Shown here: piece by piece, positions 9,823 through 62,180 of the stretch
Numbering within the stretch: the stretch's first letter is position 1
Layout of the letters: each line of letters opens with the position of its first letter
Assembly (NCBI GenBank): GCA_951812955.1
Contig: OX638340.1
Coordinates: forward strand, 2,912,001-2,976,000
DNA: 64,000 bases
Direction of reading: 5' to 3'
Origin: an uncultured Gemmatimonadota bacterium
GTDB lineage: Bacteria > JAAXHH01
Program-made: the position numbers and the translations under genes
Notes under the pieces: model-generated
The model's input: the letters and a program-made list of their open reading frames with translations, nothing else
What the model was told of the DNA's origin: nothing
Database searches by the model: none

Positions 9823-10914
9823 ATGTCCGAGCAGGTCCAGATTGCCCCGGCGCCGGAACCTGTCCCGCCGTCTCCCGCGCTGCCCGTACTGCAACCGGAC
9901 TCGGGCTATCTCGGGTACGACCGGGCGCTGTTGCGGCCCATGTCCCTCGGCACTAAGCTCCGAGCCTTGTTCAAGTACCTCTGGGTACGATTGAAGGGCG
10001 GACCGATGGCGGTGAACATGGAGGTGACCTATCTGTGCAACGCCACCTGCGATTTCTGTGATTACTGGAAGACGAAACGTTCAGGCAAGCTGGGCGATTA
10101 CGACTACATGGAGGCGCTCAGGAAGCTGAACCCCCTGACGGTCACGCTGACCGGCGGGGAACCCATGATCAACAAGCGACTGCCCGAGGCGGTCAGACGC
10201 ATCAAGGATGGCCTGGGATTCGTTTATATCGGCATGGTCACCCACGGATCTCTGCTGACCGTAGAAAAGGCCATGGCCCTGTGGGATGCCGGCGTGGACC
10301 ACATTTCGATCTCGTTGAACTATATCGGCCGCGAACATGACGAGGAACGGGGTATCGCGGGTTTGTACGAGCATATCTCCACGCTCGTTCCCCAGCTGAC
10401 GGCCCGAGGGGTCAACGTGATCTTCAACACGGTGATCATGCGTGAGAACCTGGACCACGTCGTACCCATCGCGCACCTGGCGCGTTCTATGGGCGCGAAG
10501 GTTTCCTACAGTTGCTACAGCGACTACAAGAATGGGAACGAAACCCACCTTGTGGATCCCGGTCACGAGGAGCAGTTGGAATCCGTGATCGAGGATCTGA
10601 TCTACCAGAAATCCCGATTGGGAAACATCGTCAATTCCGCCTGGTACTTGCGCCGGATCCCCGATTACTTCCAGGATGCGCTTCCAAGGTCCTGCACGGC
10701 AGCGGGCAAGTGGCTGGTGCAACTGACTCCCGACGGCAACGTAAAACCCTGTGCGGAACTGCCCGTAATGTCCGGGTATGCCGATTTCAAGCGGGTTTCA
10801 ACGAAGATCGACTGCAACCGGTGCTGGTACAGTTGCCGGGGTGAGACCGAATCTTCGTTGAAGCTTGTAAGGGTGCTGGAAGGCCTGGGCAGGGCCTGGC
10901 GCAGTAGCGCTTAA
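9823..10914 (+). CDS. Radical SAM enzyme with C-terminal Cys-rich (SPASM/twitch-like) region
   Basis: CNATCDFCDYW CxxxCxxC motif, TLTGGEPM SAM-binding motif. C-terminal C...CNRCWYSCRGE cluster. Pro/Ala-rich 60-aa N-terminal extension. Confidence 0.7.
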   Translation: MSEQVQIAPAPEPVPPSPALPVLQPDSGYLGYDRALLRPMSLGTKLRALFKYLWVRLKGGPMAVNMEVTYLCNATCDFCDYWKTKRSGKLGDYDYMEALRKLNPLTVTLTGGEPMINKRLPEAVRRIKDGLGFVYIGMVTHGSLLTVEKAMALWDAGVDHISISLNYIGREHDEERGIAGLYEHISTLVPQLTARGVNVIFNTVIMRENLDHVVPIAHLARSMGAKVSYSCYSDYKNGNETHLVDPGHEEQLESVIEDLIYQKSRLGNIVNSAWYLRRIPDYFQDALPRSCTAAGKWLVQLTPDGNVKPCAELPVMSGYADFKRVSTKIDCNRCWYSCRGETESSLKLVRVLEGLGRAWRSSA

Positions 10915-13900: not shown

Positions 13901-16613
13901 GGTCGATGATCCAGTCGGCCGTCTTGATCACGTCGATGTTATGTTCGATGACAACGACGGTGTTGCCCTTGTCCACGAAGGCGTTCAGCACGGCGAGCAG
14001 ATGGGTGATGTCTTCGAAATGCAGGCCGGTCGTCGGTTCGTCCAGCACGTACATGGTCCGTCCCGTGCTTCGCTTGCACAGTTCACGGCCCAGCTTGATG
14101 CGCTGCGCCTCGCCCCCCGACAGCGTGGGCGCGGGCTGGCCCAGCTTGATATACCCCAGGCCTACGTCGTAGAGCGTCCTCAGCACCCGTGCGATGGACG
14201 GAACGTGCTCGAACAGTTCAAGCGCCTCCTGCACGTCCAGGTCGAGCACGTCGGCAATGGAGCGTCCCTTGTATTTCACCTCCAGGGTTTCCCGGTCGAA
14301 GCGCCTGCCTTCGCAAACGGGACAGGAGACCCACATATCCGCCAGGAAGTCCATCTCCACCCGCGTAGCCCCGTTGCCCTGGCAGGCTTCGCACCGGCCG
14401 CCCCGCACGTTGAAGCTGAACCGTCCCGGCCGGTAACCGCGCAACCTGGCTTCGGGGGTTTCGGCGAAGAGGGAGCGGATCGCGTCGAAGACCTTCGTGT
14501 AGGTTGCCGGATTCGATCTGGGCGTGCGGCCGATGGGGGCCTGGTCGATGTTGATCACCTTGTCCAGGTGCCCGACGCCCTTGAGGCCGTCATGTTCGCC
14601 CGGGTCCGTGCCGGCCTTGTTCAGCAGACGGGCCAGAGCCGCGTACAGGATGTCGTTGATCAGCGAGCTTTTACCGGAACCGGACACGCCCGTTACGCAC
14701 GTAAACCGTCCCACGGGCAGGCGCACGTCCAGGTTCTTGAGGTTGTTCTGACGGGCGCCCTGGATCATCAGCCACTTATCGGCCTCGCCGCGGCGCAAGG
14801 CCGGAATCGGGATCGTCTTCTTCCCGCACAGATACTGCCCGGTCAACGAAGCGGCGCTGGCTGCCACTATGCCGGGGCGGCCTTCGGCCACGATCTCGCC
14901 GCCGTTGACGCCGGCGCCCGGACCAAAATCCACGATGTGGTCGGAAGCCCACATGGTTTCTTCATCGTGCTCGACAATGATGACCGTATTGCCCTGGTCC
15001 CGCAACTGGCCCAGGGTATCCAAAAGCCGCCGGTTGTCCCTGGGATGCAGTCCGATACTCGGTTCGTCGAGCACGTACATCACGCCGACGAGCCCGCGGC
15101 CGATCTGGCTCGCGAGACGTATGCGCTGCGCCTCTCCGCCTGATAGCGTCGGCGCCGTGCGTTCCAGCGAAAGGTATTCGAGGCCCACGTTGAGGAGGAA
15201 GTCGAGCCGGGCGACTATTTCCTTGAGCGCTTCGTCGCCGATCTGGCGTTCGGCATCCGAAAGGGTCAGCTTCCGAAAGAAAGCGCGGATATCCAGTATC
15301 GGCAACCGGCACAGCGCGGCGATGGAGAGGCCGCCCAGGGTGACGGAAAGCGCTTCTGGCTTGAGGCGTTCTCCGCCGCAGCGATCGCATTGGCCTATGG
15401 CCATGTACCGTTCGATCTCGGTCTTGTGCCTGGGGGACTTGAGCGTATGGTACCGTTTTTCTAGGTCGGGAACGACCCCGTTGAACCGGTCCTTGTGCGA
15501 CCACTCGCCGCCCTTCCCGTTGTGGAAGGTGAAGGTGATTCGCTTGTATCCCAGGCCGTACAGCACCACCTTCCGCGCCTCTTCGTCCAACCGTTCCCAT
15601 GGCGTGTCCAGGCTGAAACCCACGTGTTGGGCTATCCCCTCGAAAAAGTGCCGTTTCCACTGGTTGGCGATGGTGCCGAGGGGTTCGATCGCCCCTTCGT
15701 TAATGGACTTCGCCGGATCGGGAATGATGAGCCTGGGTTCGATCCGCATCATGGTGCCCAGGCCGTGACAGTTCGGGCACATGCCCTGGGGGCTGTTGAA
15801 GGAGAACAGTTGCGGCGTGGGCTCCTCGTAACTCAGGTCACACGCGTTGCAGGCGTACCGCGTGCTGAAGAGCAGATCAGAAGTCCGGCCGTCCCCCTCC
15901 ATCTGGACCAACACGGAACCCTGGCTCAGGTGCAACGCGCCTTCCACCGCCTCGACCAGGCGGGTGCGGATGTCCTCCCGCACGACGAGCCTATCCGTCA
16001 CCACTTCGATCGTGTGCCGCATGTTTCGGTCCAGATCCGGATCCTCGGAGAGGTTGACGACGTCGCCGTTCACCCGGGCGCGCAGGTAGCCCTGCCGGCG
16101 CAGGTCCTCGAAGAGGTCCCGGTATTCGCCGCGGCGCCCCTGGATGACCGGCGCCAGTACGAGCAGCCGCGTTCCTTCGGGAAGCGCCAGGATCCGCGCG
16201 ACGATCTGTTCGAGGGTCTGCGCCCCTATCGACCCACCGCATTTCATGCAGTGAGGCGCCCCTACCCGGGCATACAGCACGCGCAGGAAGTCGTAGATCT
16301 CCGTGATCGTCCCGACGGTGGAACGGGGGTTCAGCCCGGCGGTTTTCTGTTCGATGGAGATGGCGGGCGCCAGTCCCGTGATCCGGTCGACGTCGGGTTT
16401 CTGCATCTGGCCGAGGAACTGTCTCGCGTAGGCCGATAGGGATTCGACGTAGCGCCGCTGGCCCTCCGCGTAAAGGGTATCGAAAGCCAGCGAAGACTTG
16501 CCGGATCCGGATACGCCGGTGAAGCAGATCAGTGCGTCTTTCGGCAGATCCAGGCTCACGTTCTTCAGGTTGTGAACGCGGGCCCCTTTGATTTGTATGG
16601 ATGTTGCGGCCAT
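10911..16613 (-). CDS. uvrA: Fused tandem UvrA-UvrA (two complete excinuclease ABC subunit A units in one 1900-aa polypeptide)
   Basis: MAATSIQIKGARVHNLKN...GVSGSGKSSLAFDTLYAEGQRRYVESLSAYARQF is a canonical UvrA N-terminus. It has four Walker A boxes, four LSGGEAQR signatures and multiple Zn-finger Cys clusters. The second full UvrA starts about aa 965 (IREITVRGAREHNLRDL...GVSGSGKTSLALDTIYAEGQRRYV). There is no stop between the units. The track ORF extends to 16667, but the UvrA-like start is ATG 16613. Confidence 0.85.
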   Translation of the reverse strand: MAATSIQIKGARVHNLKNVSLDLPKDALICFTGVSGSGKSSLAFDTLYAEGQRRYVESLSAYARQFLGQMQKPDVDRITGLAPAISIEQKTAGLNPRSTVGTITEIYDFLRVLYARVGAPHCMKCGGSIGAQTLEQIVARILALPEGTRLLVLAPVIQGRRGEYRDLFEDLRRQGYLRARVNGDVVNLSEDPDLDRNMRHTIEVVTDRLVVREDIRTRLVEAVEGALHLSQGSVLVQMEGDGRTSDLLFSTRYACNACDLSYEEPTPQLFSFNSPQGMCPNCHGLGTMMRIEPRLIIPDPAKSINEGAIEPLGTIANQWKRHFFEGIAQHVGFSLDTPWERLDEEARKVVLYGLGYKRITFTFHNGKGGEWSHKDRFNGVVPDLEKRYHTLKSPRHKTEIERYMAIGQCDRCGGERLKPEALSVTLGGLSIAALCRLPILDIRAFFRKLTLSDAERQIGDEALKEIVARLDFLLNVGLEYLSLERTAPTLSGGEAQRIRLASQIGRGLVGVMYVLDEPSIGLHPRDNRRLLDTLGQLRDQGNTVIIVEHDEETMWASDHIVDFGPGAGVNGGEIVAEGRPGIVAASAASLTGQYLCGKKTIPIPALRRGEADKWLMIQGARQNNLKNLDVRLPVGRFTCVTGVSGSGKSSLINDILYAALARLLNKAGTDPGEHDGLKGVGHLDKVINIDQAPIGRTPRSNPATYTKVFDAIRSLFAETPEARLRGYRPGRFSFNVRGGRCEACQGNGATRVEMDFLADMWVSCPVCEGRRFDRETLEVKYKGRSIADVLDLDVQEALELFEHVPSIARVLRTLYDVGLGYIKLGQPAPTLSGGEAQRIKLGRELCKRSTGRTMYVLDEPTTGLHFEDITHLLAVLNAFVDKGNTVVVIEHNIDVIKTADWIIDLGPEGGDAGGRVIAEGTPETVAGVDGSSTGRILEKALRPRALPVAPKPVRQDAAGDGHIREITVRGAREHNLRDLTVAVPRDRMTVFTGVSGSGKTSLALDTIYAEGQRRYVESLSAYARQFLQQMQKPKVDHIVGLSPAISIEQKAPGRNPRSTVGTITEIYEYLRALYALVGAPHCPACRVPIGAQTPSQIVDRIMTLPEQTRATLHAPLEPEGAEGYDALLDRARRNGFIRVRIDGVLRRLEEDIQIDRRRRHELCVVVDRIVMQGDVRQRLADSVETALDLSGGLLIAEVQEPDSAGPHDIRFSRYYSCPACGVSYDELSPQSFSFNHRAGMCPDCEGLGTQPGIDLDLLIPDRSKSIRDAAAAIWEEGTVGERSILDLLELVASTQGFNLETPVEALSAEQLQVLLYGSDRWIEDQRVPGLSFQFRGIFPAVELVARYANRFPELARLLQPTPCSACEGGRLRSESLSVLIDGVSIAALCAMSTDRALDFIEGLKLSAPQREVVGEVMKEIRNRMRFLLDVGLEYLTLDRRAPSLSGGEAQRIRLASQIGSGLTGVLYVLDEPTIGLHPRDNLRLIHALENLRDLGNTLIMVEHDRDTLEHADNLVDFGPGAGVFGGRIVGEGTPAALRELETSLTGSYLGNRLRIEVPRDRRKPGRNRLSILGARQNNLKNIDVTLPLGVFICVTGVSGSGKSSLVNDILHPVLASTLHRAQVNPGPHDEIKGLRFVDKVINIDQTPIGHSPRSDPSTYVGLFAPIRSLFSRTVEARMRGYEPRRFSFNVPAGRCEACQGLGVRKIEMHFLADVWMTCEVCDGKRYMKETLEVTYKGKTIADTLEMTVAEALEHFENVPRIRRMLQTLYDVGLDYIKLGQSAITLSGGEAQRVKLAKELSRPGTGKTVYLLDEPTTGLHFDDIRKLLNVLNRLVDKGNTVLVIEHNLDVIKTADWIVDLGPEGGDRGGHVVAAGTPEDIAASLLSHTGKILARELAPVVV

Positions 16614-16844
16614 GGGAATCAAGCCGGATTCAGCGGGTCGTTGGATCAGGGCGAACGGCGGCGGCACAGCAAGCGAAAGATGCTATACGGGTGTTTAGAA
16701 ATCAAGGTATTTTCAAGGTGGACCGTGAATGGCGGAAAAGACGCTTGTTCTATGCCGTTACCGGAGTTAACGTGGTGTCGGCCGGTCCATCAGAATGCGG
16801 CGCGCCGGCCCGCCGCAGCCGATGTCGGAAACGGGACGATCATC

Positions 16845-25179: not shown

Positions 25180-27717
25180 TTACCGCGCGAGGTTTTCGTA
25201 GACCGCTTGCGCTTCACGGAACTGGCCGATCACGTGGTCTATCTCTTCCTGTGAGCGCCAGCCCGGGTGCGCTTCGGCCATTTCGATGAGCCGGTCGATC
25301 CACCGGACGAAATACCCGGCGGATTCCCGGTTGCGGATCGGATCATCTCCCACGTAGATCCGTATGGGTTGTGTCGTGGCCAGCGGAAAACGGTCGTCGA
25401 TGGGGTGGGTCCAGGGGGCACCTTCTGCCTGGAAGGTGTACCATCCGCTCTCACGAACCGTCCACTCTTCCTCGAAGACCGCACGCTTTCCGTCTTCGGC
25501 CAGGGGTATTTCCTTCACAATCTGCCCATTCCTGTAGACCAATACCTTCTCGAGCGGGACGATGCTGTGCATTTCGCCGGCGAGCGAGATCGCACCGCCC
25601 TCTTCAGGTAGATGGATGGTCTCGCCGGGTCCCATGCCGTTGATGGTAAACCCCAGGAGCGGTCCGTTGGTGGCAAAAGTCCGACCGGCCTTCAGTCCCG
25701 CCAGCCAGGCGTCCCAGGACAGGGATTCGTCGCCCAGGTGGACATAGGACCGGACCTGTCCCACGATTGCGGTCCGGTACATGCTGCTGATCGAATCCTC
25801 ACCGCCGGTCAGGACGATGTTGAAGTCGTTGTTGAGCAAATGGTGCCATACGCTGAGGACGGCATGGCCGGCCCCGGAGATCTCGAGTGCTTCCACGGTT
25901 CCCAGTGCCGCGTCGACGGGAAAAGCCTTGGCGCCGCCCAGCGTCGGGTTGTCTCCCCCCAGCGGATCCGCATCGCCGAAAAAGGGATGGACGTATCCGC
26001 GGAAGGCGCCCTGTTCTCCGGCCAGCCGCAACATGTCCGTGTTCGATGGGTAGAGGCTGTGTATTGCGGTTCCCTCGTAGCCGGACGCAAAGGGCGACAG
26101 CAGAAAGTCCGAAAGGTCGATGAAGTAGACGTGACCGTGAAAGGCCGGCCGGTATTCCTCGCCCACGTGCAGGATGCGGTCCGGCGTGGACAGGGCGTCC
26201 GGCCTGCCCGTGAAAAACTGGTAGTCCAGCACGCGGTTGTCCTTGTTTGCCACGAGTTCGTTGACCACGGCCTGATCTTCCGCGTCCGACATGTGCATCA
26301 GGTTCTCCAGGGTGTTATGCAGGTCGCCTGCGTAGTTCATATGCACGTGGGTGCTGCCGCTGTACCAGCCCCTGGAGGGCATGTCCACCATGCGTGAGAG
26401 CGTAAGGGCAACAGCGGTGGTCTTGCCTTCCTCGATCTCTACTGTAGTGCTCACGGGATGATATTCAAAGCCCCGCATGGCTTCCACCGTCAAGGGTCCG
26501 GACGGAACATCGAGGACGAACGAACCGGCACCATGAAAGAAATGCTCGCGGAGACGGCCGACGCGGTGGTAGGCGCCCTCCGGGGCATAGGATTTCCCGT
26601 CTTCGGCTTTTACATAGACACGGGCCGCGGTCGGCTTTCCCGTTTCACCGTCCAGCACGGTGACCGCAGCGCGACCGTGGGAACCGCGCCAGCGCTTTTC
26701 GTTGATCTTGACGTCAGTCAGTCTGCCTCCGACGGTTTCCATGACTCGCATCACGGGCAAACCGGGTTGATTTGAGATAAAGGCGATTTTGGAACCGTCC
26801 GGCGACCAGCGGGGGTAGAAGTCGTCCCATTCGCCGAAGGTGATTTTATATGGGTGCCCCCCGTCTGCCGGCAGGAGGTAGAGTTTCGTGTACTGGCCGC
26901 CGCTGTGGGAGGCATAGACAAAGCGTGAGCCGTCCGGAGACCAGTGCGGACGCGTCCGGTACAGGGTCTGTTCTTCGTGGACGATCCAAGCTTTGTCGAT
27001 ACCGTCCGGTTCGACCGGCATGCGCCATACGGCACCCGATCCAAGTGGGATGCCCCGGTTGCTGACGAACATGAGTTCCTTGCCGTCGGGCGACCAGTGC
27101 GGTTCGATGTGCAGGTCGTACGCGCCGAAATACAGGCGGCGCTTACCGTAGTCATTGTCCCGCGTCAGCTGAATCGGATCTCCGGAGGCGAGGCCGTCTT
27201 TCATGTCCTGAACGAAGATGTTGAAATAGCCGCCGGGTTCCGTGGACACGTAGGCCAGCCTGGAGCCATCGGGCGACCACGCAGGGTCGAGATACAGGTG
27301 GTCTCCGGTAGTCAGCGGCGTGGATGCTCCCGTTTCCACGTCCAGGACCATGAGATCGATCGTCCTGTTGTCGGTTTCAGCCGTGTATACGATCCACCTG
27401 CCGTTGGGCGACCAGGCCGGCGAGGAATCGTAGGTTTCGTTATCGGTAAGTTCGTATGCGATGTTTTCGCCCAGCCCGATACGCCATATGGAACCGTGCA
27501 GGCCAAAGGCCAGTTCGTTTCCTTCGGGCGACCACGCCGGCCGCCGGGGCGTAGTCGTCGAGGGCGGCGGCAGGTAGAAGTTGTGCATGTAGTTGCCGCC
27601 GGTCAGGGCGGCCTGGTACGCCGTGGGAGGGGGTTGCTGGGACACCGAGCGATCTGTCGCCGCCAGGCAGCAGAAGGCCAGCACCAGTCGCAGGGAACCG
27701 GGTAGTCTCGTCATCAT
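25180..27717 (-). CDS. Secreted TolB-like (PD40) beta-propeller protein fused to CehA/McbA-type (PHP-like) metal-dependent hydrolase domain
   Basis: Signal peptide. Repeated WSPDG/WSPNG PD40 motifs in the N-terminal 400 aa. C-terminal GSTHVHMNYAGD...HPFFGD metal-binding His clusters. Confidence 0.55.
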   Translation of the reverse strand: MMTRLPGSLRLVLAFCCLAATDRSVSQQPPPTAYQAALTGGNYMHNFYLPPPSTTTPRRPAWSPEGNELAFGLHGSIWRIGLGENIAYELTDNETYDSSPAWSPNGRWIVYTAETDNRTIDLMVLDVETGASTPLTTGDHLYLDPAWSPDGSRLAYVSTEPGGYFNIFVQDMKDGLASGDPIQLTRDNDYGKRRLYFGAYDLHIEPHWSPDGKELMFVSNRGIPLGSGAVWRMPVEPDGIDKAWIVHEEQTLYRTRPHWSPDGSRFVYASHSGGQYTKLYLLPADGGHPYKITFGEWDDFYPRWSPDGSKIAFISNQPGLPVMRVMETVGGRLTDVKINEKRWRGSHGRAAVTVLDGETGKPTAARVYVKAEDGKSYAPEGAYHRVGRLREHFFHGAGSFVLDVPSGPLTVEAMRGFEYHPVSTTVEIEEGKTTAVALTLSRMVDMPSRGWYSGSTHVHMNYAGDLHNTLENLMHMSDAEDQAVVNELVANKDNRVLDYQFFTGRPDALSTPDRILHVGEEYRPAFHGHVYFIDLSDFLLSPFASGYEGTAIHSLYPSNTDMLRLAGEQGAFRGYVHPFFGDADPLGGDNPTLGGAKAFPVDAALGTVEALEISGAGHAVLSVWHHLLNNDFNIVLTGGEDSISSMYRTAIVGQVRSYVHLGDESLSWDAWLAGLKAGRTFATNGPLLGFTINGMGPGETIHLPEEGGAISLAGEMHSIVPLEKVLVYRNGQIVKEIPLAEDGKRAVFEEEWTVRESGWYTFQAEGAPWTHPIDDRFPLATTQPIRIYVGDDPIRNRESAGYFVRWIDRLIEMAEAHPGWRSQEEIDHVIGQFREAQAVYENLAR

Positions 27718-27854
27718 GTCACTCCGCGGTTATGTAGATGGCTTTCCATTCAAGTCCGCTCTTATGGGATGGGCAGCGAACGGTGGAATATTGAGGCTTT
27801 CGTACGCGAACCGCGTATCCATGTTGGACTTGCGGGTGGGACCTACGCCACGAA

Positions 27855-28664
27855 TCAGTTCCGTTCCAACGCTTTTTCGACTTCGGAATCCCAGGTGCCG
27901 TCCACGCGTATCCCATATTCGGCTACGCCCCCAGTGGCCCGTGGTCCGGTGATATAGGGCCGGTAGTCGCGGCCGTCCTCAATGAGGCGGTCCGGCGCGT
28001 AGTCCGCGCGGAGGAAGTGGAAGGCGATGCCGGCCCGGGCCTTATTCGTACTGTTATGACCCGTGCAGTGCGCGGTGCCATAGCAGAAGAACAGCGCGCC
28101 GCCTGCCTTCAGCTCGATGATATCCGCTTGTTCCTCCGGCGGGTAGCAGCGTATGTGGTGGTCGCTGTACTGGTCCCGGCTATGCTCGTAGGCTGTCCGG
28201 TAGCTGTCCGGGATCACCTGCATGGTGCCGTTTTCGACGTTCGCGTCGTGCACGGCAATCCAGACGGCCGTTCCCATAAGGGGATCGCTGATCTTGAAAT
28301 AGGCGTTGTCCTGGTGCCAGTGGGTGCCCATGCCGTCTCCGCCCGGTTTGAGGAAGACCTGGTCCAGTTGGAGAATATAGGGGTCTCCGATCAACTGGGA
28401 GATGGCGGCGATCACGTCGGGCTGGAACGGAAGGGCCCTGAACAGGTCGCTGTGGCTGAACATAGGGCACAACTGCAGGTTGCGCCGCGTCGTGGACTTC
28501 GTCTCTCCATCGCCCTCCGTGGCCACGTTGCGCAAGGCGCCTTCTTCCATGAGACGATCGATTTCGGCCTGAAGCGCCCGGGTATCCTCGTCGGAGAAGA
28601 ACCCGGGTTTAGCCACGTAGCCATGAGATTTGAAATGGTCGACTTCTTCCTTTGTCAATACCAT
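27855..28664 (-). CDS. Phytanoyl-CoA dioxygenase (PhyH)-family Fe(II)/2-oxoglutarate oxygenase
   Basis: MVLTKEEVDHFKSHGYV N-terminus, HWHQDNAYF HxD motif, C-terminal His. Confidence 0.65.
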   Translation of the reverse strand: MVLTKEEVDHFKSHGYVAKPGFFSDEDTRALQAEIDRLMEEGALRNVATEGDGETKSTTRRNLQLCPMFSHSDLFRALPFQPDVIAAISQLIGDPYILQLDQVFLKPGGDGMGTHWHQDNAYFKISDPLMGTAVWIAVHDANVENGTMQVIPDSYRTAYEHSRDQYSDHHIRCYPPEEQADIIELKAGGALFFCYGTAHCTGHNSTNKARAGIAFHFLRADYAPDRLIEDGRDYRPYITGPRATGGVAEYGIRVDGTWDSEVEKALERN

Positions 28665-28796: not shown

Positions 28797-31700
28797 TCAG
28801 AAGCTCATGCGAGCCAGCAGGCCGATTCGGTGATCGGACGCGCTGCCATGCCGCTCGAGTCGCATACCGGAGAGTTCCAGGGATGCGCCGCTGGCGCGAG
28901 AACCCGATTGGGAGAGTCTGGCGCCCAGCCGCATCCGCCGCCGGTCGTCTCCGAGGAGATACATTTCGCCGAAAGGCGTCATCAACATGCCAATGGACGG
29001 ATACGCGAGCCCGTAACCGACCTCGGCCTTGAACGCACGGGTGTTGTCCCGGCCGTTCACGGATGTACCGGCAAGCGGTCTGTCACGCCACATCATGCCC
29101 GAGTCTCCCGTACCGGCGCCAATACGCGGCGCGATGGACATGGATAGACCGGTCCCGCCCGCACCGGGATTGAGGTAGGCGGCAACGGAGAACCCGTTTT
29201 CGCTGTATCCATCGGCGGTGTGCACCGCCAGGAACCTGCCCTGCGCGTTTACGCCCACCCGGCCGCCTGACAGGCGCAAGCCTCCCGAGACCTCCAGACC
29301 CTGGCCCGTCTGGCCGGTGCCGCCGTCATAACGTCCGGCAACCTGGGCATAGGGCGTGATCGTGGTTCCGCCGGCAAGCGTCGACGTACGTGACCCTTCC
29401 AGGCCGATCCGGACCCGCTGCACGTCGCTTTCGATGTCGCTCAACGACGGGGATTCGCTGTCGGCGGTCGAAAGACGCAACAGGCCGGCGTCCCCGATTA
29501 CATCGAGACCCGTGCCGCCCGTCCCCGCCACCCGCATGCGCGTGCCCACCATGGCCATGCGCATGGAGAGATCGCTCGCAGCATCCTCCACATCGACTTC
29601 GCCGGTGCCGAGACCCACAATCGACCACACTTCCGTAAGACAGGTGCTGCTTGCCCATCGCAGGTATGGCAGCACACTGGTAAGGCGCGATTCCAGGCTG
29701 CCGCTCGCGACCGTTACGTCGTAATCGGACTGGCCCGCCGCGTGCGAAAGGGCAATACCCGCCATCCAGTTGCGCTCCGTGGCCACATCAAAACCGACGT
29801 AAGCCGTCTTCATGTCGCCATCGTAGCTGGTATTCACGTCGGGTTCGCCCTGGAAGTTCTGCAAATCGCCGGCGCCCCAGACAGACCATCGGAGACCTCC
29901 GTTGGCCGTGCCATCCTCCAGCGCGTACGAGAACGAACTCGTGCTCAACAGGTATCCGCTGTTAACGTAGCGCCGGTTTTCGCCGTCGTTCAACAGCGCC
30001 AGGTGTTTCGCCGAAACCTGGCGTCCGTGGCCGGTAAGTCTGGCCAGGGCCGCCACACTGGACGCGAATCCGTCTATCCTGCGACCTCCCACGGTGAATC
30101 CCTGTCCGCCCGTTCCATCGGAGAAGCGGCCGCCGATCGTTGAGGAGACGCTGGACAGCATGTTCCGGCCCATGGCGCTCAGGATGTTCTCGTAGACCAT
30201 CCGTTCCGCCGCGATGGCCGTAACCGTCACGCCGACGGTAAGGCTGGCCTCGCCGGCCGCGTTCCGGGCGGTGACCGTCACTGTGGCGGAACCCTTGCGA
30301 ACGCCTGTTACGGTCAGCGTGGCCGCCGACATAACGGCCGTTGCCACGCTGTTATCGGATGTGGACGCGGTTAAACTCAGATCTGTACCGCTGAACAGCG
30401 CACCCGCGTTGATTGTCTCGCTTTCACCCGAGTCCAGTGATACCGAAGGCGGACTGCCCACGATTGCCGGGGCATCGTAGGAGTCGGTTATTGTGACCGT
30501 CGCGGAATCCAGGTCCTGGCCATCGTAACTCGCCGTGACGATGATCGTCTCTCCTCCGGACTCGTACACATCGTCGTTGATGACCGTGATGGCAAGCTCG
30601 GAAGAACCTTCCGTGGCCTCGCCTGGAATCGTAATACTCAGGTTGCCACGGACGCTGTAGTCATCGCTGCTGGCCGTACCGGATAGCGCAAGCGGGATTA
30701 CCGTCGTGATCGGTATGGCCCCGCTCGTCTGCGTCGCCGTCACGTTCACGGTCTGCGTACCGCCGTCTTCGGACACAGCCTCGGGGGTAACAGAAAGCGT
30801 AATCTCCGGGACGTAGCCGGTCAGATCGAAATAGAATCCTGACCCGATTACGAGTTCCGTCCCGTCGACCATGACGGTTTCCGTGTAACTCACCTTGGGC
30901 GAGCCCGTATCTTCGTCGCCGTCCACAGCCGGGTTGTCGAAGTAATACTCTACATAACCTCCCCCGGCCTGCGCTGCCGCGATAAGCTCACGAGTGTAAT
31001 AGACCCCATTCAGGTCCTGGTCATCGAAAATGTTCATGTTCTCGATCGATGGGTTGGCACCGTTGAAAACGAGCAGGCCGTCTGTTTGCAGGAAAAAAAT
31101 GTAGATCTCACCCAGCCGCCAGTTTCCGTCCTCGACCCGGAAGGCCTCGACGACGTCACTGTGAAGATCGAATCCCACTTCATCGATGGCGCCTTTGTAG
31201 GCTGCTTTGGCCGCCTGGACAAATGACCTGAGGCTTGCCCGGTCCATCACGTCCGCCGCGGTTACGTCTCCAACAGGAAGAGGAGGTACGAGAACGTCCA
31301 GCACCGTGATCGTCGACGACCCGATATCCTCTCCCTCGTAAGTGGCCTTAACCACGATGGTCTCGCCGTCTTCCTCGGCTACGTCGTCGATCACATCGAA
31401 GGTAAGCGTCGTGGAAGCCGACGTGGCATCCCTTGGAATGATGATTTCGAGCGTTCCGTCCGAGGTATAGTCATCGCTTGTGGCCGTACCCTCGAGTGTC
31501 AGGTCGATGATCGTAGCCACCGGCACCGGGTCGTCGGTGAGCGTGGCCGTCACGGTCACCTCCTGGCCGTCTTCGCCTTCGACGAGGGTTTCACGGTCCA
31601 CCTCCAATGTGATCGCCGGGACGTCGTCCACGGGTCTTCGGTAAAAACCGGCGCCCACGACGAAGGTCTGGCCGGGATAAAAATCCGGATATTCAATAGT

Positions 31701-34700
31701 CTCAGCGTAACTCACCTTGGGCGAACCGAGCTCTTCGTCTCCCATGACCGACGGGTCGTCATAGTGGTACTCGACAAATCCACCGCCCCCAATCGCGACG
31801 TTGATGAGGTCTTCAATGAAGCGCTTGCCGTTCAAGTCTTCCAGGTCGATCCGAATGGCGCCTTCCTGCGTTATGTCCGCCCCGTGGAAGAACACGAACC
31901 CTTGCGTTGTCAGGACGAACAGGTAGATGGCGCCTTCCCTGAACGGTCCTCCTTCTTCCCTCAATGCGGCTTTCAGCCTCCCGACCTCCACGCCGCGCGT
32001 TTCGAAGGCCTCAAAAGTCCAGTCTACGGTGCCTCGCACGAAGGCCTTCAGCGTTTCCTTGTCCACCACGTCCTGCGCACGCACAGCTGGCGGATCCGGA
32101 AGCGTGACTTCTGAAACAGCATCGGGGATATCCATGTTGAAGCCGCCTACCAGGATGAAATCACCCACGCCGAACCCGGATGCGTACGAAGTGGCGTAGG
32201 CCACGCGGTTGGGATCGTCATTGGGATCGTTCGGATCATCCCAGGTGAATTCGACGAAACCCCCTCCTGAATTGGCCGCCGCGAGGATCTTCTGAACGAC
32301 TTTTTCTCCTTTGTCGTCTTCCAGGTCGCTAATGTCAATGCCGTCGCGGGTCGGGTCGTCGCCGTGGAAGAACATCTCGCCTGCAATCGTCAGGACCGAA
32401 AGGTACAGGTCTCCTTGTTTCCAATCGCCTTCGGAACGGAACGCGACACCCAGGGCCGGGAGTTCGTTGGCGTCGGTAATGCGTTCCAGGGAATCGGCCA
32501 CAGTTTCGACAAATCCCTTCAGCGTCTCGCGGTCTACTACTTCGCTGGCCACGATCGTTGTTTTTTCCTTCACCGTGATCGTCGCCGACCCGATATCCTC
32601 TCCCTCGTAAGTGGCCTTAACCACGATGGTCTCATTGGCGCCGTCGATCACATCATCCACCACGTCGAAGGTGAGCGTGGTGGAAGCCGCGGTGGCATTC
32701 CTTGGGATAATGACCTCCAGCGTTCCTTCCACGGTGTAGTCATCGGAAGTGGCCGTACCGTCAAGAGACAGGTTGATGATCGTCGCCACCGGCACCGGGT
32801 CATCGGTCAGCGTGGCAGTTACCGTCACTTCCTGGCCGTCACGGCCTTCGACTACGGATTCCGGATCCACGGCCAGCGTGATCTCCGGTACGTCGTCCAC
32901 AGGTCTTCGGTAGAAGCCTGCGCCTACGACGAAGGTCTGCCCGGGATAATAATGCGGGAATTCAACCGTTTCGGCATAACTCACCTTGGGCGAACCCAGC
33001 TCTTCATCACCCATAACCGAAGGATCGTCATAGAAGTACTCGACAAAACCACCACCTGCTACCGCGGTATTTATGAGATCTTCGATAAAGCGCTTGCCGT
33101 TCAGGTCTTCGAGATCGATCCGGATCGCACCTTCCTGCGTCATGTCCGCCCCGTGAAAGAACACGTACCCATTCGTTGTAAGAATAAACAGGTAGATGGA
33201 GCCTTCTCTAAATGGTCCGTCTTCTTGCCTCAAAACGGCTGTCAGTGTCCCGGCCTCGACACCATGCGTCTCGAAAGCGGTAAAGGACCATTCGATCGCG
33301 CTTTTCACGAAAGCCTTAAGACTCTCCTTGTCCACCACGTCCCGTGCCTGGACAGCGGGCAAATCGGGCAGCATACCCTCTTCCGGATCGGGAATGTCCA
33401 TGTTGAAGCCGCCCACCAGGATGAAATCACCCGACCCAACAAAACCGGATGTATATCGGACCGCGTAAGCCAGCCGGTTCGGATCATCATTGGGATCATT
33501 CGGATCATCCCAGGCAAAATCTACGAACGCTCCCTCGGCGTCCGCTGAGATGATATCCTGAACTACTTTATTGGCGTTGTCGTCTTCCACATCGCTTATA
33601 TCGAACCCGTCCCGGGTGGGATCGTCACCGTGGAAAATCAATACGCCTTCAGGGGTGAGCACCGAAAGGTACAGGTCTTCATGTTTCCAATCGCCTTCTT
33701 CTCGGAGGACACCCCACAATCGAGGGACCTCGTTGATATCGGTAACCCGTTCGAGAGAATCCGCCACCATGTCGACGAATGCCTTCAATGTCACATCATC
33801 CTCCACGTCAGCGGCCGTAATACGTCCAGTAGCGTCAAGAATCGACAGCGTGTCGGCCGCCACTTCCTCCAGGTCGTGGTTGGCAGTGACGATGATGGTT
33901 TCGCCGTCCGCTTCCGCTACTTCGTTGTCCGCCACGTCGAACGTCAGTTCCGTGGTCCCTTCCGTCATCTCGGCGGGTATCGTGACGACCATCTCGCCGG
34001 TTACTGTGTAGTCGGTGTTCTCCACGGCCGTGCCCGACAGGGTCAGCGGCATTCGAACCGATACGGGCAATGCACCATCGGCCCGGGTTTGCGTAGCCGT
34101 CACGGTCACGGTCGCGGTCTCGCCCTCGGTCAACACATCGGGGTCTGCGGCCAGCTCGATCGTACCCACATGATCTTCAAGTTCGTCGAAGTATAAACCG
34201 GAGCCAATGATGTAATCGTTGCCATGAAACACAAACTCTTCGGCGTAGCTCAACTTCGGCGAACCGGTATCTTCGTCTCCCATGACATCCGGATCGTCAT
34301 AGTGATATTCGACAAAACCGCCACCTGCCTGTGCCGCGGCGATGAGATCCTGGATGAAGTACTTCCCGTTTACGTCCTGTTCATCCCATGCAGACATGTT
34401 CTGCAGGCTGGCGTTGGCTCCATGGAAGAACCAGTCTCCCTCGGTGGTCAAAACGAACAGGTAGGTGTGTTCGTGCCTCCAGGGGCTGCCTTCCTGCCTG
34501 AAAATATCCAGGTTCGCTGACAAGATGTCGAAACCGTATTGTTCGAGGGCTGTCTGGTAAGTGGTGATGGATCCCTCTACGAACTTTACGAGGGTACCCC
34601 GGTCCATCACCTCGGAAGCCGTGACCTCCGGGTGGGGAAGCTCATCCGGATTTATCGTGGGTGTGGGAGGGCTCGAACCGGAAAGATTCTGGCGGAATCC

Positions 34701-35240
34701 GCCGACCATGATCACCTTCTGTCCGGTTATACCTGAAGTGTAGCTCACGGCATAGGCAGTTTTAGCGGTATCTTCGTCCCCCTGCTCGTCCGGATCATCC
34801 CAGTAGTAATCGACGAAGTCGCCACCCTCCACGTCCGCGGCCGTTAAGAGCGCTTGCACCACCTTTGTGCCCATCGCATCTTCGACATCAGAGATATTTG
34901 CTGTATTTACCGAGTGGTCATTGGCATGAAGCCATACAATACCGCCCGGCAAAAGGATGATGAGGAAGGTGGTGCCGTCATTCCAGTCTTCCTCGTCGCT
35001 GATTTTGTGGATCCATCCGCTGATATCGTTCGGATTGGTAACCGCTTCCGCATCGGCCTTCGCATACAGCACGAACTGCTTGAGGGTCGCGTCGTCCATT
35101 ACCTGGCCGGCCGTAATCGGTTCGACCTGGGCAGCAGCCGGCCCTGCTCCAATGAGTAGGCTTACCACACCCATCATTACCCCTAAAACCAGAGTTGATA
35201 ACATCAATCTATCAGAAATAGAGGAACTCATAATTGGCAT
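28797..35240 (-). CDS. Giant (2147 aa) outer-membrane-anchored surface protein with repeated sCache_2-like and Calx-beta-like domains and C-terminal beta-barrel
   Basis: Signal peptide MPIMSSSISDRLMLSTLVLGVMMGVVSLLIGAGPAAAQ. Seven repeats of the pattern ...YLFVLT..G...FHG......D.....G.......I..A..GGGFVEY.YDDP....KVSYA... (sCache_2-like). Four Calx-beta-like repeats (..VTVTAT......L.LSGTA...DYT......IP...T.G...LTFDV.DD...E..ETI.V). Big_2-like segment. About 550-aa C-terminal Gly/Ser/Ala-rich beta-strand region ending ...ARMSF. Confidence 0.6.
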   Translation of the reverse strand: MPIMSSSISDRLMLSTLVLGVMMGVVSLLIGAGPAAAQVEPITAGQVMDDATLKQFVLYAKADAEAVTNPNDISGWIHKISDEEDWNDGTTFLIILLPGGIVWLHANDHSVNTANISDVEDAMGTKVVQALLTAADVEGGDFVDYYWDDPDEQGDEDTAKTAYAVSYTSGITGQKVIMVGGFRQNLSGSSPPTPTINPDELPHPEVTASEVMDRGTLVKFVEGSITTYQTALEQYGFDILSANLDIFRQEGSPWRHEHTYLFVLTTEGDWFFHGANASLQNMSAWDEQDVNGKYFIQDLIAAAQAGGGFVEYHYDDPDVMGDEDTGSPKLSYAEEFVFHGNDYIIGSGLYFDELEDHVGTIELAADPDVLTEGETATVTVTATQTRADGALPVSVRMPLTLSGTAVENTDYTVTGEMVVTIPAEMTEGTTELTFDVADNEVAEADGETIIVTANHDLEEVAADTLSILDATGRITAADVEDDVTLKAFVDMVADSLERVTDINEVPRLWGVLREEGDWKHEDLYLSVLTPEGVLIFHGDDPTRDGFDISDVEDDNANKVVQDIISADAEGAFVDFAWDDPNDPNDDPNRLAYAVRYTSGFVGSGDFILVGGFNMDIPDPEEGMLPDLPAVQARDVVDKESLKAFVKSAIEWSFTAFETHGVEAGTLTAVLRQEDGPFREGSIYLFILTTNGYVFFHGADMTQEGAIRIDLEDLNGKRFIEDLINTAVAGGGFVEYFYDDPSVMGDEELGSPKVSYAETVEFPHYYPGQTFVVGAGFYRRPVDDVPEITLAVDPESVVEGRDGQEVTVTATLTDDPVPVATIINLSLDGTATSDDYTVEGTLEVIIPRNATAASTTLTFDVVDDVIDGANETIVVKATYEGEDIGSATITVKEKTTIVASEVVDRETLKGFVETVADSLERITDANELPALGVAFRSEGDWKQGDLYLSVLTIAGEMFFHGDDPTRDGIDISDLEDDKGEKVVQKILAAANSGGGFVEFTWDDPNDPNDDPNRVAYATSYASGFGVGDFILVGGFNMDIPDAVSEVTLPDPPAVRAQDVVDKETLKAFVRGTVDWTFEAFETRGVEVGRLKAALREEGGPFREGAIYLFVLTTQGFVFFHGADITQEGAIRIDLEDLNGKRFIEDLINVAIGGGGFVEYHYDDPSVMGDEELGSPKVSYAETIEYPDFYPGQTFVVGAGFYRRPVDDVPAITLEVDRETLVEGEDGQEVTVTATLTDDPVPVATIIDLTLEGTATSDDYTSDGTLEIIIPRDATSASTTLTFDVIDDVAEEDGETIVVKATYEGEDIGSSTITVLDVLVPPLPVGDVTAADVMDRASLRSFVQAAKAAYKGAIDEVGFDLHSDVVEAFRVEDGNWRLGEIYIFFLQTDGLLVFNGANPSIENMNIFDDQDLNGVYYTRELIAAAQAGGGYVEYYFDNPAVDGDEDTGSPKVSYTETVMVDGTELVIGSGFYFDLTGYVPEITLSVTPEAVSEDGGTQTVNVTATQTSGAIPITTVIPLALSGTASSDDYSVRGNLSITIPGEATEGSSELAITVINDDVYESGGETIIVTASYDGQDLDSATVTITDSYDAPAIVGSPPSVSLDSGESETINAGALFSGTDLSLTASTSDNSVATAVMSAATLTVTGVRKGSATVTVTARNAAGEASLTVGVTVTAIAAERMVYENILSAMGRNMLSSVSSTIGGRFSDGTGGQGFTVGGRRIDGFASSVAALARLTGHGRQVSAKHLALLNDGENRRYVNSGYLLSTSSFSYALEDGTANGGLRWSVWGAGDLQNFQGEPDVNTSYDGDMKTAYVGFDVATERNWMAGIALSHAAGQSDYDVTVASGSLESRLTSVLPYLRWASSTCLTEVWSIVGLGTGEVDVEDAASDLSMRMAMVGTRMRVAGTGGTGLDVIGDAGLLRLSTADSESPSLSDIESDVQRVRIGLEGSRTSTLAGGTTITPYAQVAGRYDGGTGQTGQGLEVSGGLRLSGGRVGVNAQGRFLAVHTADGYSENGFSVAAYLNPGAGGTGLSMSIAPRIGAGTGDSGMMWRDRPLAGTSVNGRDNTRAFKAEVGYGLAYPSIGMLMTPFGEMYLLGDDRRRMRLGARLSQSGSRASGASLELSGMRLERHGSASDHRIGLLARMSF
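31300..33820. repeat. Two near-identical tandem 1.26-kb direct repeats inside the giant gene (each encoding Cache-Cache-Calx unit)
   Basis: Protein units aa 474-895 and 896-1313 are about 80% identical. This produces mirrored spurious antisense ORFs (31764..32114 vs 32364..33548). Confidence 0.7.
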
Positions 35241-35396
35241 CTCCCATCTTTGGATGGAATTTAAGATTCGAAAGTACGATTAAAGTCTGGTTTATGTAGC
35301 AATTGCAGTATGAAATTTCACTTTCTTTCTACGTCAAGTCAAAGTTCGACCTTCATTCAGATTCCATTAGATAGAAATGTAATTTTAATAACTGCT

Positions 35397-36798
35397 TCAA
35401 TCAGGTAACGCCTCGTTGCCGAACCGCTCGATGGCATCCAGGGTCTCCAGGACATCGTCCCATGAAGTGGTGTAGTTTACAATACAGAGTCTCAACGAGA
35501 ACTTCTCCCAGAGATTGGTAGAGGATATGAACGCACGGTCTTCCCAGAAGATGCGGACGAGGACCTTCTTGTTGATTGCGTCCAGGGCGGACTCGTCGAG
35601 GTCTGCATGACCGGGATTGACGCGGAAGCATACGATGCCCAGCGACCCTGGTAACAACATCTCCAAGGTATTGCTGTTCCTGATGTAATCCTCAGCTTGG
35701 GCAGCCAGTTCAAGTCCTTTGGAAACGGCTCGACGGAAGGCCGCCATGCCGAAGATCTGCACGGACATCCAAATCTTCAATGCCCGTACGGACCTGCTGA
35801 GTTGCAGACCTCGGTCGGAGAAATTCGGATGATTCGCCCCCCACACCGTGTCCTGCAGGATATCGTGCCGCACCGCGAAGGCGCGCTCCAGCGTACCGAG
35901 GTCCTTTACCATCAGGCACCCGGCTTCGTATGGCTGGTAAAACAACTTATGCGCGTCCAGGCCGATCGAATCGGCGCGCCCGATGCCTCGCAGAAGAGGT
36001 TTCCCCCGTTCGGTAATGACCGCGAAACCGCCGTAGGCGGCGTCGACGTGGAACCAGATGCCTTCCGCTTCGCATAGATCCGCCATCGTTTCAAGCGGGT
36101 CGATCGCGCCCGTGCTGCTCGCTCCGGCGTTGGCGCATACGGCGACCGGTTTATACCCTGCCGATCGATCCTGTTCTATCGCGTGCTTCAGCGCTTCCGA
36201 ATCAAGACGGTAGCGCGCGTCGGTCTGTATCAGCCGTGCGTTCTCGTCGGGAATGCCGATGATCCTGGCTGCCCGGACCAGTGCGCTGTGACTCTGGTCG
36301 CTCATGTACACGGTAGCGTTGTCGGGATTGCCTGCCGCTTCCCGCGCCGCGACCAGGGCTTCCAGACTGGCCGCAGATCCCCCGCTTGTCATGAGCCCTC
36401 CCGCGGTCTCCGGGTATTCAAGCCATCGCCTGAACCAGTCGATAACGACCAGTTCCATCTGGCTGGCCCCGCTAGAGGTCAACCAGGTGCACTGGTTCAC
36501 CTGGTGCGCGGACACCATGAAGTCGGCGAAGCACCCCGGGCCAGGTCGGCGAAGACGGCATGAACGCAAAAAAACGGGGATGGTCGTTACGGGCGCCGAG
36601 GGGCAGGATCTCCTTCGCCGCCCTTTCAAGGACCTCCGTCGCGGAGCTTCCCTGTTCGGGCGGTTCCTCCATGAGCTGGTCTTCGAGCTCCTTCTTGAAT
36701 TCACCGTCCCAGGCATGTTCTTCAGGGAGCTTCTTGATGCGTTCAACGATCAACTCCGCCGTCTTGTTGGCGAGTTCAAGCATGGTCTCGGGCGACAT
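35397..36798 (-). pseudogene. Group II PLP-dependent amino-acid decarboxylase (DDC/GAD/DABA-decarboxylase family) interrupted by a 1-nt frameshift near 36528
   Basis: The N-terminal part (frame of track ORF 36472..37029) carries the hallmark HPRFFAFMPSSPTWPGVL. The body (ORF 35397..36746) carries SGGSAASLEAL and DAHKLFYQP PLP-Lys. Homology switches frame between ...PTWPGVL and ADFMVSAHQ. Confidence 0.6.
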
Positions 36799-61642: not shown

Positions 61643-62180
61643 AGGTAACGCTCCTTTGATGGGTGCATGGAAGTGGGCTGGCGGGGGTGGTTCAGATCAC
61701 GCCACCGCCGCGATCATATTCTGCTATCAGCTTCCTTCGGAATCTGTACGCTACTATCTGAATATAAAAGACGGCAGATCTTCTGCAGGCAATGGATTTA
61801 ACAACGCGAAACTTCAACATACCATCGCCCATCAGCATCGCCTTATACCGGTCACAGGTTGTTTCAGTCCGGATTATCGGCCTGAGTTCAAATATTCTGT
61901 ATAGATGAAGGTCATGTCATTATATTAGCGATCGTCTGTCAGCGCAGACATCATCTGCGCTGTAGTAAAGTGATCAGTAATACACCCCCGCCAAGAATTT
62001 CTCGTAGCGTGCATTTTATTCCACATATCATCAATTACGCCCGCGATCCCAGGTCTGTGTTCAAAGCCTTGCCGGGTTCAGTCGCAATGGCGTTTGCAAC
62101 AATAGAGCTTGTTAAGTAAGAAGCACCTGTTTTTCTGGTTGGATAACACGTGGATCTATGGAACAGAATGGAATCTCAGG

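Follow-up and report, generated by a model that had tools for sequence, protein, structure and literature searches.

A long-maintained tandem duplication in the passenger of a predicted Cache-array autotransporter

A 64,000-nucleotide stretch of contig OX638340.1 from an uncultured Gemmatimonadota bacterium (here called the window) carries on its minus strand one uninterrupted open reading frame (ORF), 28797..35240 with the stop codon inside these coordinates, which encodes a protein of 2147 amino acids (aa) with a tandem internal repeat. The original prediction took this gene for a sensor array in which a 1.26-kb “Cache-Cache-Calx” unit had recently been duplicated, and took the repeat as a sign of ongoing expansion or contraction by unequal crossing over. 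The locus raises two questions: how old is the duplicated pair, and what kind of protein carries it? Our analysis favors, as the likely answer, an old and maintained duplication in a surface-displayed Cache-array autotransporter whose units turn over among its relatives.

The pair itself is a genuine intragenic tandem duplication. A repeat finder returned direct repeats across 31297-33698 at a spacing of 1269/1266 nucleotides (nt), and self-blastn gave a single off-diagonal match in the gene, 1227 nt at 77.9% identity (E = 0), which is the nucleotide-level diagonal that had been proposed as a check. The two copies, an upstream unit 2 (U2) and a downstream unit 3 (U3), are in frame and in tandem, measure 1.27 kb, and are 77-78% identical as DNA; together they make up the interval originally given as 31300-33820 (Table 1). 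Each consists of two Cache domains of different type (A and B) followed by a domain of ~110 aa (C). Self-blastp with the query segment masked to expose internal matches aligned aa 474-890 with aa 896-1313 at 75.4% identity across 419 aa, so that the predicted length of 420 aa holds and the predicted identity of about 80% was slightly high. The more divergent first unit and the half unit that had been noted were both found as well. Unit 1 (U1; aa 42-471) is 41-44% identical to U2 or U3, and the half unit (aa 1317-1587) matches the distal two thirds of the full units at 43-48% identity. Tandem Repeats Finder, for which the longest period covered was 500 nt, reported nothing relevant, and an Rfam scan of the window gave no match. 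The guanine-plus-cytosine (GC) content of the units (U1, 0.564; U2, 0.549; U3, 0.585) is below that of the C-terminal anchor (28800-30470; 0.644) and of the window (0.606), which is compatible with a separate evolutionary history of the cassettes.

The divergence of the two copies is not that of a recent pair. U2 and U3 of the window differ at a proportion of synonymous sites (pS) of 0.52, with a synonymous divergence (dS) of 0.89 and a ratio of nonsynonymous to synonymous divergence (dN/dS) of 0.18. Their third codon positions are 59% identical, and the same pair in the related locus L002 has a dS of 0.98. When matching units were compared between genomes, dS was 0.02-0.09 for the conspecific contig L001, 0.06-0.26 for L002, and 0.21-0.47 for a third locus, L083. 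In a tree built on 49 full units of 23 proteins, the two copies sat in different clades, each with orthologs of its own. WIN_u2, the U2 of the window, grouped with its orthologs, the u2 of P0002 (96% identical) and of P0003 (94%). WIN_u3 grouped with the last full unit of many homologs (P0007_u3, P0004_u5, P0006_u3, P0009_u2, and P0008_u2); its identity is 93% with P0007_u3, 90% with P0003_u3, and 80% with P0008_u2, against only 75% with WIN_u2. Because the dS between U2 and U3 exceeds that between orthologs and the copies sit in separate orthologous groups, the duplication cannot be called recent, as originally proposed. It is old and predates the split of the window lineage from several related lineages.

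Divergence between the copies drops along the unit, from a dS of 1.45 in domain A through 0.89 in domain B to 0.5-0.7 in domain C, and dN/dS is 0.12-0.14 in both Cache domains and 0.24-0.31 in the C domain. Both copies are thus held by purifying selection, and the first Cache domain is the most diverged. The pattern suggests two non-redundant binding modules, not a transient copy.

The two copies have nevertheless exchanged sequence. The only long exact run shared by U2 and U3 is 48 nt (the next longest is 20 nt, and the maximum in 2000 shuffles was 44 nt). At 229 diagnostic sites, U3 of the window is almost entirely in the U3 state except for 11 consecutive U2-state sites in this tract, where the U3 of L001 and L002 differs from U2 at ~11 sites and encodes KANYEGQEIGTT instead of KATYEGEDIGS. 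Since the conspecific L001 keeps the L002-like state, the state in the window is derived, and the tract is a short U2-to-U3 conversion. Two other candidates were set aside. A possible second patch in U2 of the window (~32895-32910, four U3-state sites) was rejected, with the U2 of L002 being the odd one out, and this cluster is more simply explained by L002-specific changes. Scattered U2-state sites in the U3 of L002 (alignment columns 287-479) were too untidy to call conversion.

What, then, is the protein? Using family-specific hidden Markov models built from the window's own units, we resolved its layout as SP-(A-B-C)3-(B-C)-Big_2-helix-barrel, where SP is a putative signal peptide. Pfam placed sCache_2 (PF17200) on seven stretches with 290.2 bits (cutoff, 25). 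An AlphaFold2 model of U3, with an alignment of 18 diverse units as input, was confident (predicted local distance difference test [pLDDT], 87.5; predicted template modeling score, 0.74). Its best Cache fold matches in Foldseek, by target-normalized template modeling (TM) score, included 4exo (0.71), 2qhk (0.68), and 4k08 (0.67), with 5g4y and TlpB as further ones; all are single-Cache chemoreceptor sensor domains, and the unit profile also matched 2qhk by sequence (E = 3e-13). The modeled Cache part superposes on such solved domains and is predicted to have their PAS-like alpha/beta fold. The sCache_2 core motifs (FHG, LEDxNG, and GGGFVEY...P...PKxSY) are invariant or nearly so in the 18 units and align with the matching segments of ligand-binding sCache structures. 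Among the structural relatives, 5g4y is a Cache domain that binds carboxylates, and TlpB is in its urea-bound form.

The “Calx” part of the proposed unit needed a finer distinction. All Foldseek matches of the C domain to the Calx-beta fold had a probability of 1.00, with target-normalized TM scores of 0.52 for NCX1 CBD1 (2dpk), 0.57-0.60 for CALX CBD1 (3e9t and 3ead), and 0.59 for CBD2 (2qvm). By sequence, only the fourth C domain of the window scored for Calx-beta (20.2 bits, E = 6e-4), and a match at E ≤ 0.01 was obtained for only 2 of 23 C domains of the family (best, 7.3e-5). Because the modeled fold matches Calx-beta while the sequence stays below the Pfam cutoff, the label “Calx-like fold” is justified and membership in the Pfam family is not. 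The Cache part of the original name therefore stands by Pfam and by fold, and the Calx part stands by predicted fold only. Across C domains, the conserved motif DDxxxExxGET includes a nearly invariant D80 and an invariant E88; this acidic motif resembles the Calx-beta signature and is a candidate Ca2+-coordinating cluster. A further link to bona fide Calx-beta families is provided by P0031, a metagenome protein of 3435 aa from the Joint Genome Institute that has ~18 C-type Calx-like domains but lacks Cache domains. Its identity with the C domains of the window is 49%, and it passes Pfam Calx-beta at 61 bits.

The C terminus identifies the protein class. Pfam matched the Autotransporter beta-domain (PF03797) at 33.7 bits against a cutoff of 26, and relatives scored 30-42 bits. 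A model of aa 1588-2147 (pLDDT 69) consisted of an immunoglobulin-like (Ig) domain, a long helix, a low-confidence linker, and a large barrel. The best fold match of the barrel was BrkA (target-normalized TM, 0.81), followed by Hbp, EspP, AIDA-I, EstA, and NalP. Almost all top matches were classical autotransporter beta-domains, in keeping with a predicted 12-stranded barrel. The helix (model residues 89-120, pLDDT ~90) is a candidate autotransporter linker helix. The C-terminal Phe (...RMSF) is kept across the close family, and on inspection all family members share a signal-peptide-like N terminus with a basic n-region, a hydrophobic core of ~20 aa, and an Ala-rich c-region. Pfam found no transmitter or output domain (methyl-accepting chemotaxis protein [MCP], kinase, GGDEF, and similar) over the 2147 aa, and no internal transmembrane helices were evident by sequence inspection, the only check applied. 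The gene product is a classical (type Va) autotransporter, with a modular Cache array and not a beta-helix as its passenger. Because it has no transmitter domain, the protein is not a sensor in the signaling sense, and with an outer-membrane barrel as its C terminus, the term “sensor array” is unsupported.

The array was then compared across homologs. A database search recovered about 30 family members, whose lengths step by ~425 aa, with 1-5 full units before a common B-C-Big_2-barrel anchor; the half unit is present in all members with the (A-B-C)n-B-C layout. Clustering at 70% identity gave at least 12 unit types (lettered independently of the domains), which are combined in varying order on the conserved anchor. 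In the closest relatives, the anchor is 88-99% identical to that of the window. The window has units of types C-B-B, and the arrangements elsewhere (with identity of the anchor to the window's in parentheses) are C-B in P0005 (99%), C-B-B in P0002 (95%), a single A in P0014 (94%), A-A-A-A-B in P0004 (91%), and E-A-B in P0007 (88%). The array at L083:6121-11265 has four tandem 1287-nt units in perfect periodicity, of which u2, u3, and u4 are 100% identical as DNA and u1 differs only at the 5′ edge of the array. Its flanks are 89-91% identical to those of the window, and the 3.9-Mb contig that carries it has a name of long-read style that includes a 636x tag. This array is a truly recent amplification. 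Other similar unit pairs occur in P0022 (99%) and P0006 (91%). The window's U2 and U3, 77% identical with one 48-nt exact run, do not form an array of identical repeats.

Two comparisons also suggest recombination between lineages within the gene. In P0003, the units are 89-94% identical to those of the window and the anchor only 74%, which suggests a mosaic origin. The dS between the window and L002 is uneven along the gene (U2, 0.06; U1, 0.26; U3, 0.22) and suggests the same process. Between the window and L001, the 5′ part with U1 (33801-35300) is 99.6-100% identical and the flanking genes are 90-99% identical, suggesting a recent exchange or sweep over the distal unit. The array is plastic at the level of whole units. 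Ongoing expansion and contraction is thus upheld by the comparative data, namely copy numbers of 1-5, L083, L001, and the conversion tract, and not by the 78% identity from which it had been deduced.

The case of contraction within the species is L001, which is ~97-98% identical to the window over 21 kb, yet lacks one unit. Its protein, P0005, equals the window protein minus aa 492-913. The contig follows U2 through ...GCGGATTCT and then U3 from CTGGAACGC..., and the junction-spanning sequences are ...GGCGGATTCTCTGGAACGC... and GTGGCGGATTCTCTGGAACGC. Its diagnostic sites show a clean single switch, with 14 in the U2 state and only U3-state sites thereafter. At the junction, U2 and U3 share at most 11 nt of exact sequence, within an 18/21-nt imperfect block. 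For a de Bruijn assembler to cross from one repeat to another, the two must have a (k-1)-mer in common, with k typically at least 21. Since an 11-nt match is too short for a k-mer graph to jump copies, junction-spanning reads must exist. We conclude with some confidence that the deletion allele is probably real. It would stem from one U2/U3 crossover; the classical homology-driven form of unequal crossing over is a poor fit for this pair because the longest exact tract outside the conversion patch is 20 nt and the crossover fell in the 18/21 block. A search of metagenome_contigs for the L001 junction gave 0 matches; a degenerate control, which matched only an unrelated contig (L084), also missed the parental U2 and U3 sequences, so the species is absent there and this negative is uninformative.

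The original prediction had also warned of an assembly hazard. For the U2/U3 pair the risk is low, because the copies are 23% diverged and the three-unit array recurs in independent assemblies, with C-B-B found in L002 (the name of whose contig we take to be hifiasm output) and in P0003. The idea that U2 and U3 are an assembly artifact of strain variants was ruled out by the 23% divergence, the reading frame, and the separate orthologs in independent assemblies. The warning does apply to relatives with perfect repeats, such as L083 (5.1 kb), and copy numbers of this family in short-read metagenome-assembled genomes (MAGs) are not trustworthy without spanning reads.

We propose the following working model. 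The protein would be exported by Sec and its barrel inserted in the outer membrane, so as to place on the cell surface a multivalent array of small-ligand-binding Cache domains. The Calx-like and Ig domains would serve as spacers, the former probably binding Ca2+. In a sponge-associated bacterium, such an array could act in adhesion, host recognition, or capture of host-derived small molecules. Units are amplified, deleted in register, replaced by other types, and occasionally patched by short gene conversion while the C-terminal anchor (half unit, Ig domain, and barrel) stays conserved, and this turnover would tune or vary what is bound.

Two alternatives concern the history of the array. If the two-unit variant (L001/P0005) were an assembly collapse or a chimera and not a real allele, the evidence for contraction within the species would disappear. 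The variant comes from a single metagenome assembly project and two contigs, and no independent copy of the junction was found. The contig's name marks it as a scaffold, as short-read data would allow, and collapse is a well-known outcome at repeats. However, no exact tract above 11 nt is common to the copies around the junction, and with k at 21 or more, k-mers spanning U2-specific and U3-specific bases must have been in the reads. The junction is also in frame and in register, with its 14 U2-state sites preceding the U3-state sites, and the metagenome search carries no weight when its control found neither parental sequence. We consider a collapse unlikely. It is less probable still that the duplication is recent, with copies similar enough for ongoing unequal crossing-over and a copy number at U2/U3 that is unstable at present. 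The extended nucleotide diagonal, the conspecific contig that lost exactly one unit via a U2/U3 crossover, and the U2-to-U3 conversion tract would all fit such a history. They are outweighed by the high pS and dS, by a U2/U3 split older than the divergence from L002, L083, P0003, P0007, and P0008, by the lack of any exact tract above 20 nt besides the conversion patch, by a crossover in L001 that used at most 11 nt of exact identity, and by the stable inheritance of the C-B-B array in three lineages.

The other two alternatives concern function. The Cache domains could be structural only: like the Calx-like domains, they would act as spacers, without binding a small ligand, in a fibrillar adhesin or matrix protein stiffened by Ca2+. 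Large adhesins commonly have Calx-like and Ig domains in their stalks, one fold match is a fibrillar-adhesin domain (9ifr), many distant matches of the C domain are giant repeat proteins in which Calx-beta, cadherin, and Big domains abound, and the Cache loops are very acidic (DDPNDPNDDPN and DDPSVMGDEE). Spacers of this kind would not be expected to keep the sCache_2 core motifs across 18 diverse units, in register with segments of ligand-binding structures, nor to be under stricter constraint than the spacer-like C domain, as the Cache domains are by dN/dS. Because the motifs are invariant and dN/dS is low, we argue that the Cache pockets are functional, and a purely structural role seems doubtful to us. 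Far less probable is a receptor in which the Cache domains signal to an output in the cytoplasm, even though the best structural matches are all chemoreceptor sensor domains and Cache domains, as far as is known, occur overwhelmingly in chemoreceptors, kinases, and cyclases. Such a receptor is hard to reconcile with the missing output domain in Pfam, with no internal transmembrane helices evident on inspection, with a C terminus that is an outer-membrane autotransporter barrel, or with neighboring genes for metabolic enzymes and a protease, not for signaling.

Some observations weigh against our preferred reading of an old, maintained duplication in a surface-displayed, ligand-binding array with unit turnover. 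The two-unit allele is known from one assembly project only (ERZ23495265, SAMEA13322684; two contigs), and its crossover lies in very short homology, which is unusual for RecA-type recombination. The C domain is below the Pfam Calx-beta (PF03160) cutoff of 27 bits, and its profile gave no meaningful match against PDB sequences. The C-terminal model is moderately confident as a whole and has one 74-residue stretch of very low confidence; confidence is also low in its last ~120 residues, where weak strands extend beyond the 12 confident ones. Sponge origin is verified for only some MAG names, and the habitat of the window genome itself is indirect. Export, surface display, and ligand binding are predicted from sequence and models.

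We next considered where related proteins occur, taking one genome per species. Close relatives (60-94% identity) were found only in MAGs labeled Gemmatimonadetes, Candidatus Latescibacterota, or “bacterium,” several of them chromosome-scale. Distant proteins (~30% identical) were found in MAGs of Paracoccaceae, other Alpha-, Gamma-, and Deltaproteobacteria, Nitrospirales, Nitrospinota, Binatia, and others. In these, a C-terminal region of ~450 aa comes after two Cache domains or (A-B)2-3 arrays, and several of the proteins pass the Pfam Autotransporter cutoff. Shorter Cache-Cache-autotransporters (~870-1000 aa) and (A-B)3 arrays without a Calx-like domain, in MAGs of many other phyla, were seen among L022-L069 (e.g., L029, L038, L051, L069, and L072) and also at L044, L052, and L062.

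Many carrier bins have names with the prefixes APA_, SB06xx_, IRC, COS, and RHO. According to PMC11706023, MAGs with the names APA_bin and SB06xx_bin come from symbionts of two sponges, Aplysina aerophoba and Ircinia ramosa. Burgsdorf et al. (PMC8941161) yielded no link from the bin names “p16x” and “jk18x” to a host. The architecture of Cache arrays on autotransporters may be shared across phyla in sponge holobionts, and we found no description of a Cache-passenger autotransporter in any paper in the literature searched. A bolder proposal, which we offer as speculation that is more doubtful than not, is that these proteins form an undescribed cross-phylum class of surface proteins that recognize host molecules or the Ca2+-dependent, Calx-beta-rich sponge matrix, with cassette turnover (gain, loss, swapping, and conversion of distal units) as a means of specificity variation or host adaptation. 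The carriers in question span MAGs labeled Gemmatimonadota/Latescibacterota, Alpha-, Gamma-, and Deltaproteobacteria, Nitrospirales, Nitrospinota, and Binatia, some of them confirmed sponge symbionts.

The features of the gene are collected in Table 1. L001, L002, and L083, the three homologs for which synteny was confirmed, share the flanking genes of the window, with a pyridoxal phosphate-dependent decarboxylase upstream and a PhyH dioxygenase and a PD40/Tricorn-like protease downstream. Because these flanking genes match, the three loci are positional orthologs of the window gene. Elsewhere in the window, a 1918-aa ORF on the minus strand (10911-16667) looks like a head-to-tail fusion of two UvrA proteins, with two UvrA_inter and two UvrA_DNA-bind stretches, ABC ATPase motifs near both ends, and ~2x the usual UvrA length. 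At 62001-64000, the GC content falls to 0.535.

Table 1. Coordinates in the window of the Cache-array autotransporter gene, its parts, and its conserved neighbors
Feature	Coordinates	Strand	Evidence
Whole gene, Cache-array autotransporter	28797..35240	-	ORF list, translation; Pfam sCache_2 x7, Big_2, Autotransporter beta-domain
Putative Sec signal peptide, aa 1-37 (...GAGPAAAQ|VEP)	35130..35240	-	Inspection of sequence
U1, aa 42-473: Cache A, Cache B, Calx-like C; unit type C	33822..35117	-	Identity, domain map, type clustering
U2, aa 474-895, upstream copy of the pair	32556..33821	-	Repeat finder, self-blastn, masked self-blastp, domain map
U2 sub-domains	A 33357-33821, B 32886-33356, C 32556-32885	-	
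U3, aa 896-1316, downstream copy of the pair	31293..32555	-	Repeat finder, self-blastn, masked self-blastp, domain map
U3 sub-domains	A 32088-32555, B 31617-32087, C 31293-31616	-	
Gene-conversion tract in U3, 48 nt; donor, U2 copy 32586-32633	31317..31364	-	Exact run, diagnostic sites
1266-nt in-register segment (one unit) missing from L001; breakpoint ambiguous by a few nt	32488..33753	-	Protein, junction, diagnostic sites
Half unit, aa 1317-1590: Cache B and Calx-like C, without A	30471..31292	-	Identity, domain map
Big_2 Ig-like domain, aa 1596-1669	30234..30455	-	Pfam, 31.2 bits against a cutoff of 22.8; confident beta-sandwich in model
Predicted long alpha-helix, aa ~1676-1707, then low-confidence linker; candidate autotransporter linker helix	30120..30215	-	AlphaFold2 model
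Autotransporter beta-barrel, aa ~1784-2147, last residues ...ARMSF	28800..29891	-	Pfam, Foldseek
Conserved neighbors of the gene	25180-28664 and 35397-36746	-	Common to window, L001, L002, and L083

To our knowledge, Cache domains have been treated almost entirely as input modules of signaling receptors. Their use as autotransporter cargo without a signaling output would add surface binding or adhesion to their known roles. The modular turnover seen here, with amplification, in-register deletion, replacement, and a mapped conversion, is a tractable natural example of how a binding array evolves. If the link to sponge symbionts holds, the protein is also a candidate host-interaction factor, and we know of few bacterial surface determinants in sponge symbiosis.

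The closest known systems are the type Va autotransporters (BrkA, EspP, Hbp, AIDA-I, NalP, and EstA), with which the window protein shares an N-terminal signal peptide, a passenger, a C-terminal barrel, and a terminal aromatic residue. It differs from them in a passenger of seven tandem Cache domains with Calx-like and Ig spacers and in the region from the Ig domain to the C terminus, which is ~480 aa with a long low-confidence linker. Globular passengers that are not beta-helices are already known in autotransporters, e.g., EstA. The Cache domains are like the sCache_2 domains of chemoreceptors (2qhk/4exo, 4k08, 5g4y, and TlpB 3ub6-9) in fold and core motifs. They differ in having no framing transmembrane helices and no signaling output, in that seven of them lie in one (predicted) secreted polypeptide, and in their unusually acidic loops.

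The C domain resembles the Calx-beta domains of sponge aggregation factors and other Calx-beta arrays in its predicted beta-sandwich fold and acidic motif and differs from them in falling below the Pfam cutoff; a link to sponge aggregation factors is hypothesis only. Sponge aggregation factors have 2-14 Calx-beta domains and are Ca2+-dependent (PMC5400394). By analogy, a role of the array in Ca2+-dependent contact with the host matrix would be a reasonable hypothesis. As for its mode of change, repeat-variable surface proteins (the Alp/Rib family, Bap/Esp, and LapA-like adhesins) are built of in-frame tandem units whose number differs between strains. The Cache-array family is like them in its identical-repeat arrays (L083), in-register deletion, and conversion between units. 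It differs in that its units are three-domain modules of ~420 aa with ligand-binding-type domains, in that the window's units are old and diverged (75%) and not near-identical, and in that variation also comes from a swap to other unit types. Autotransporters and repeat-variable surface proteins are thus known, and what is new is a family of Cache-array autotransporters with cassette-like turnover of units.

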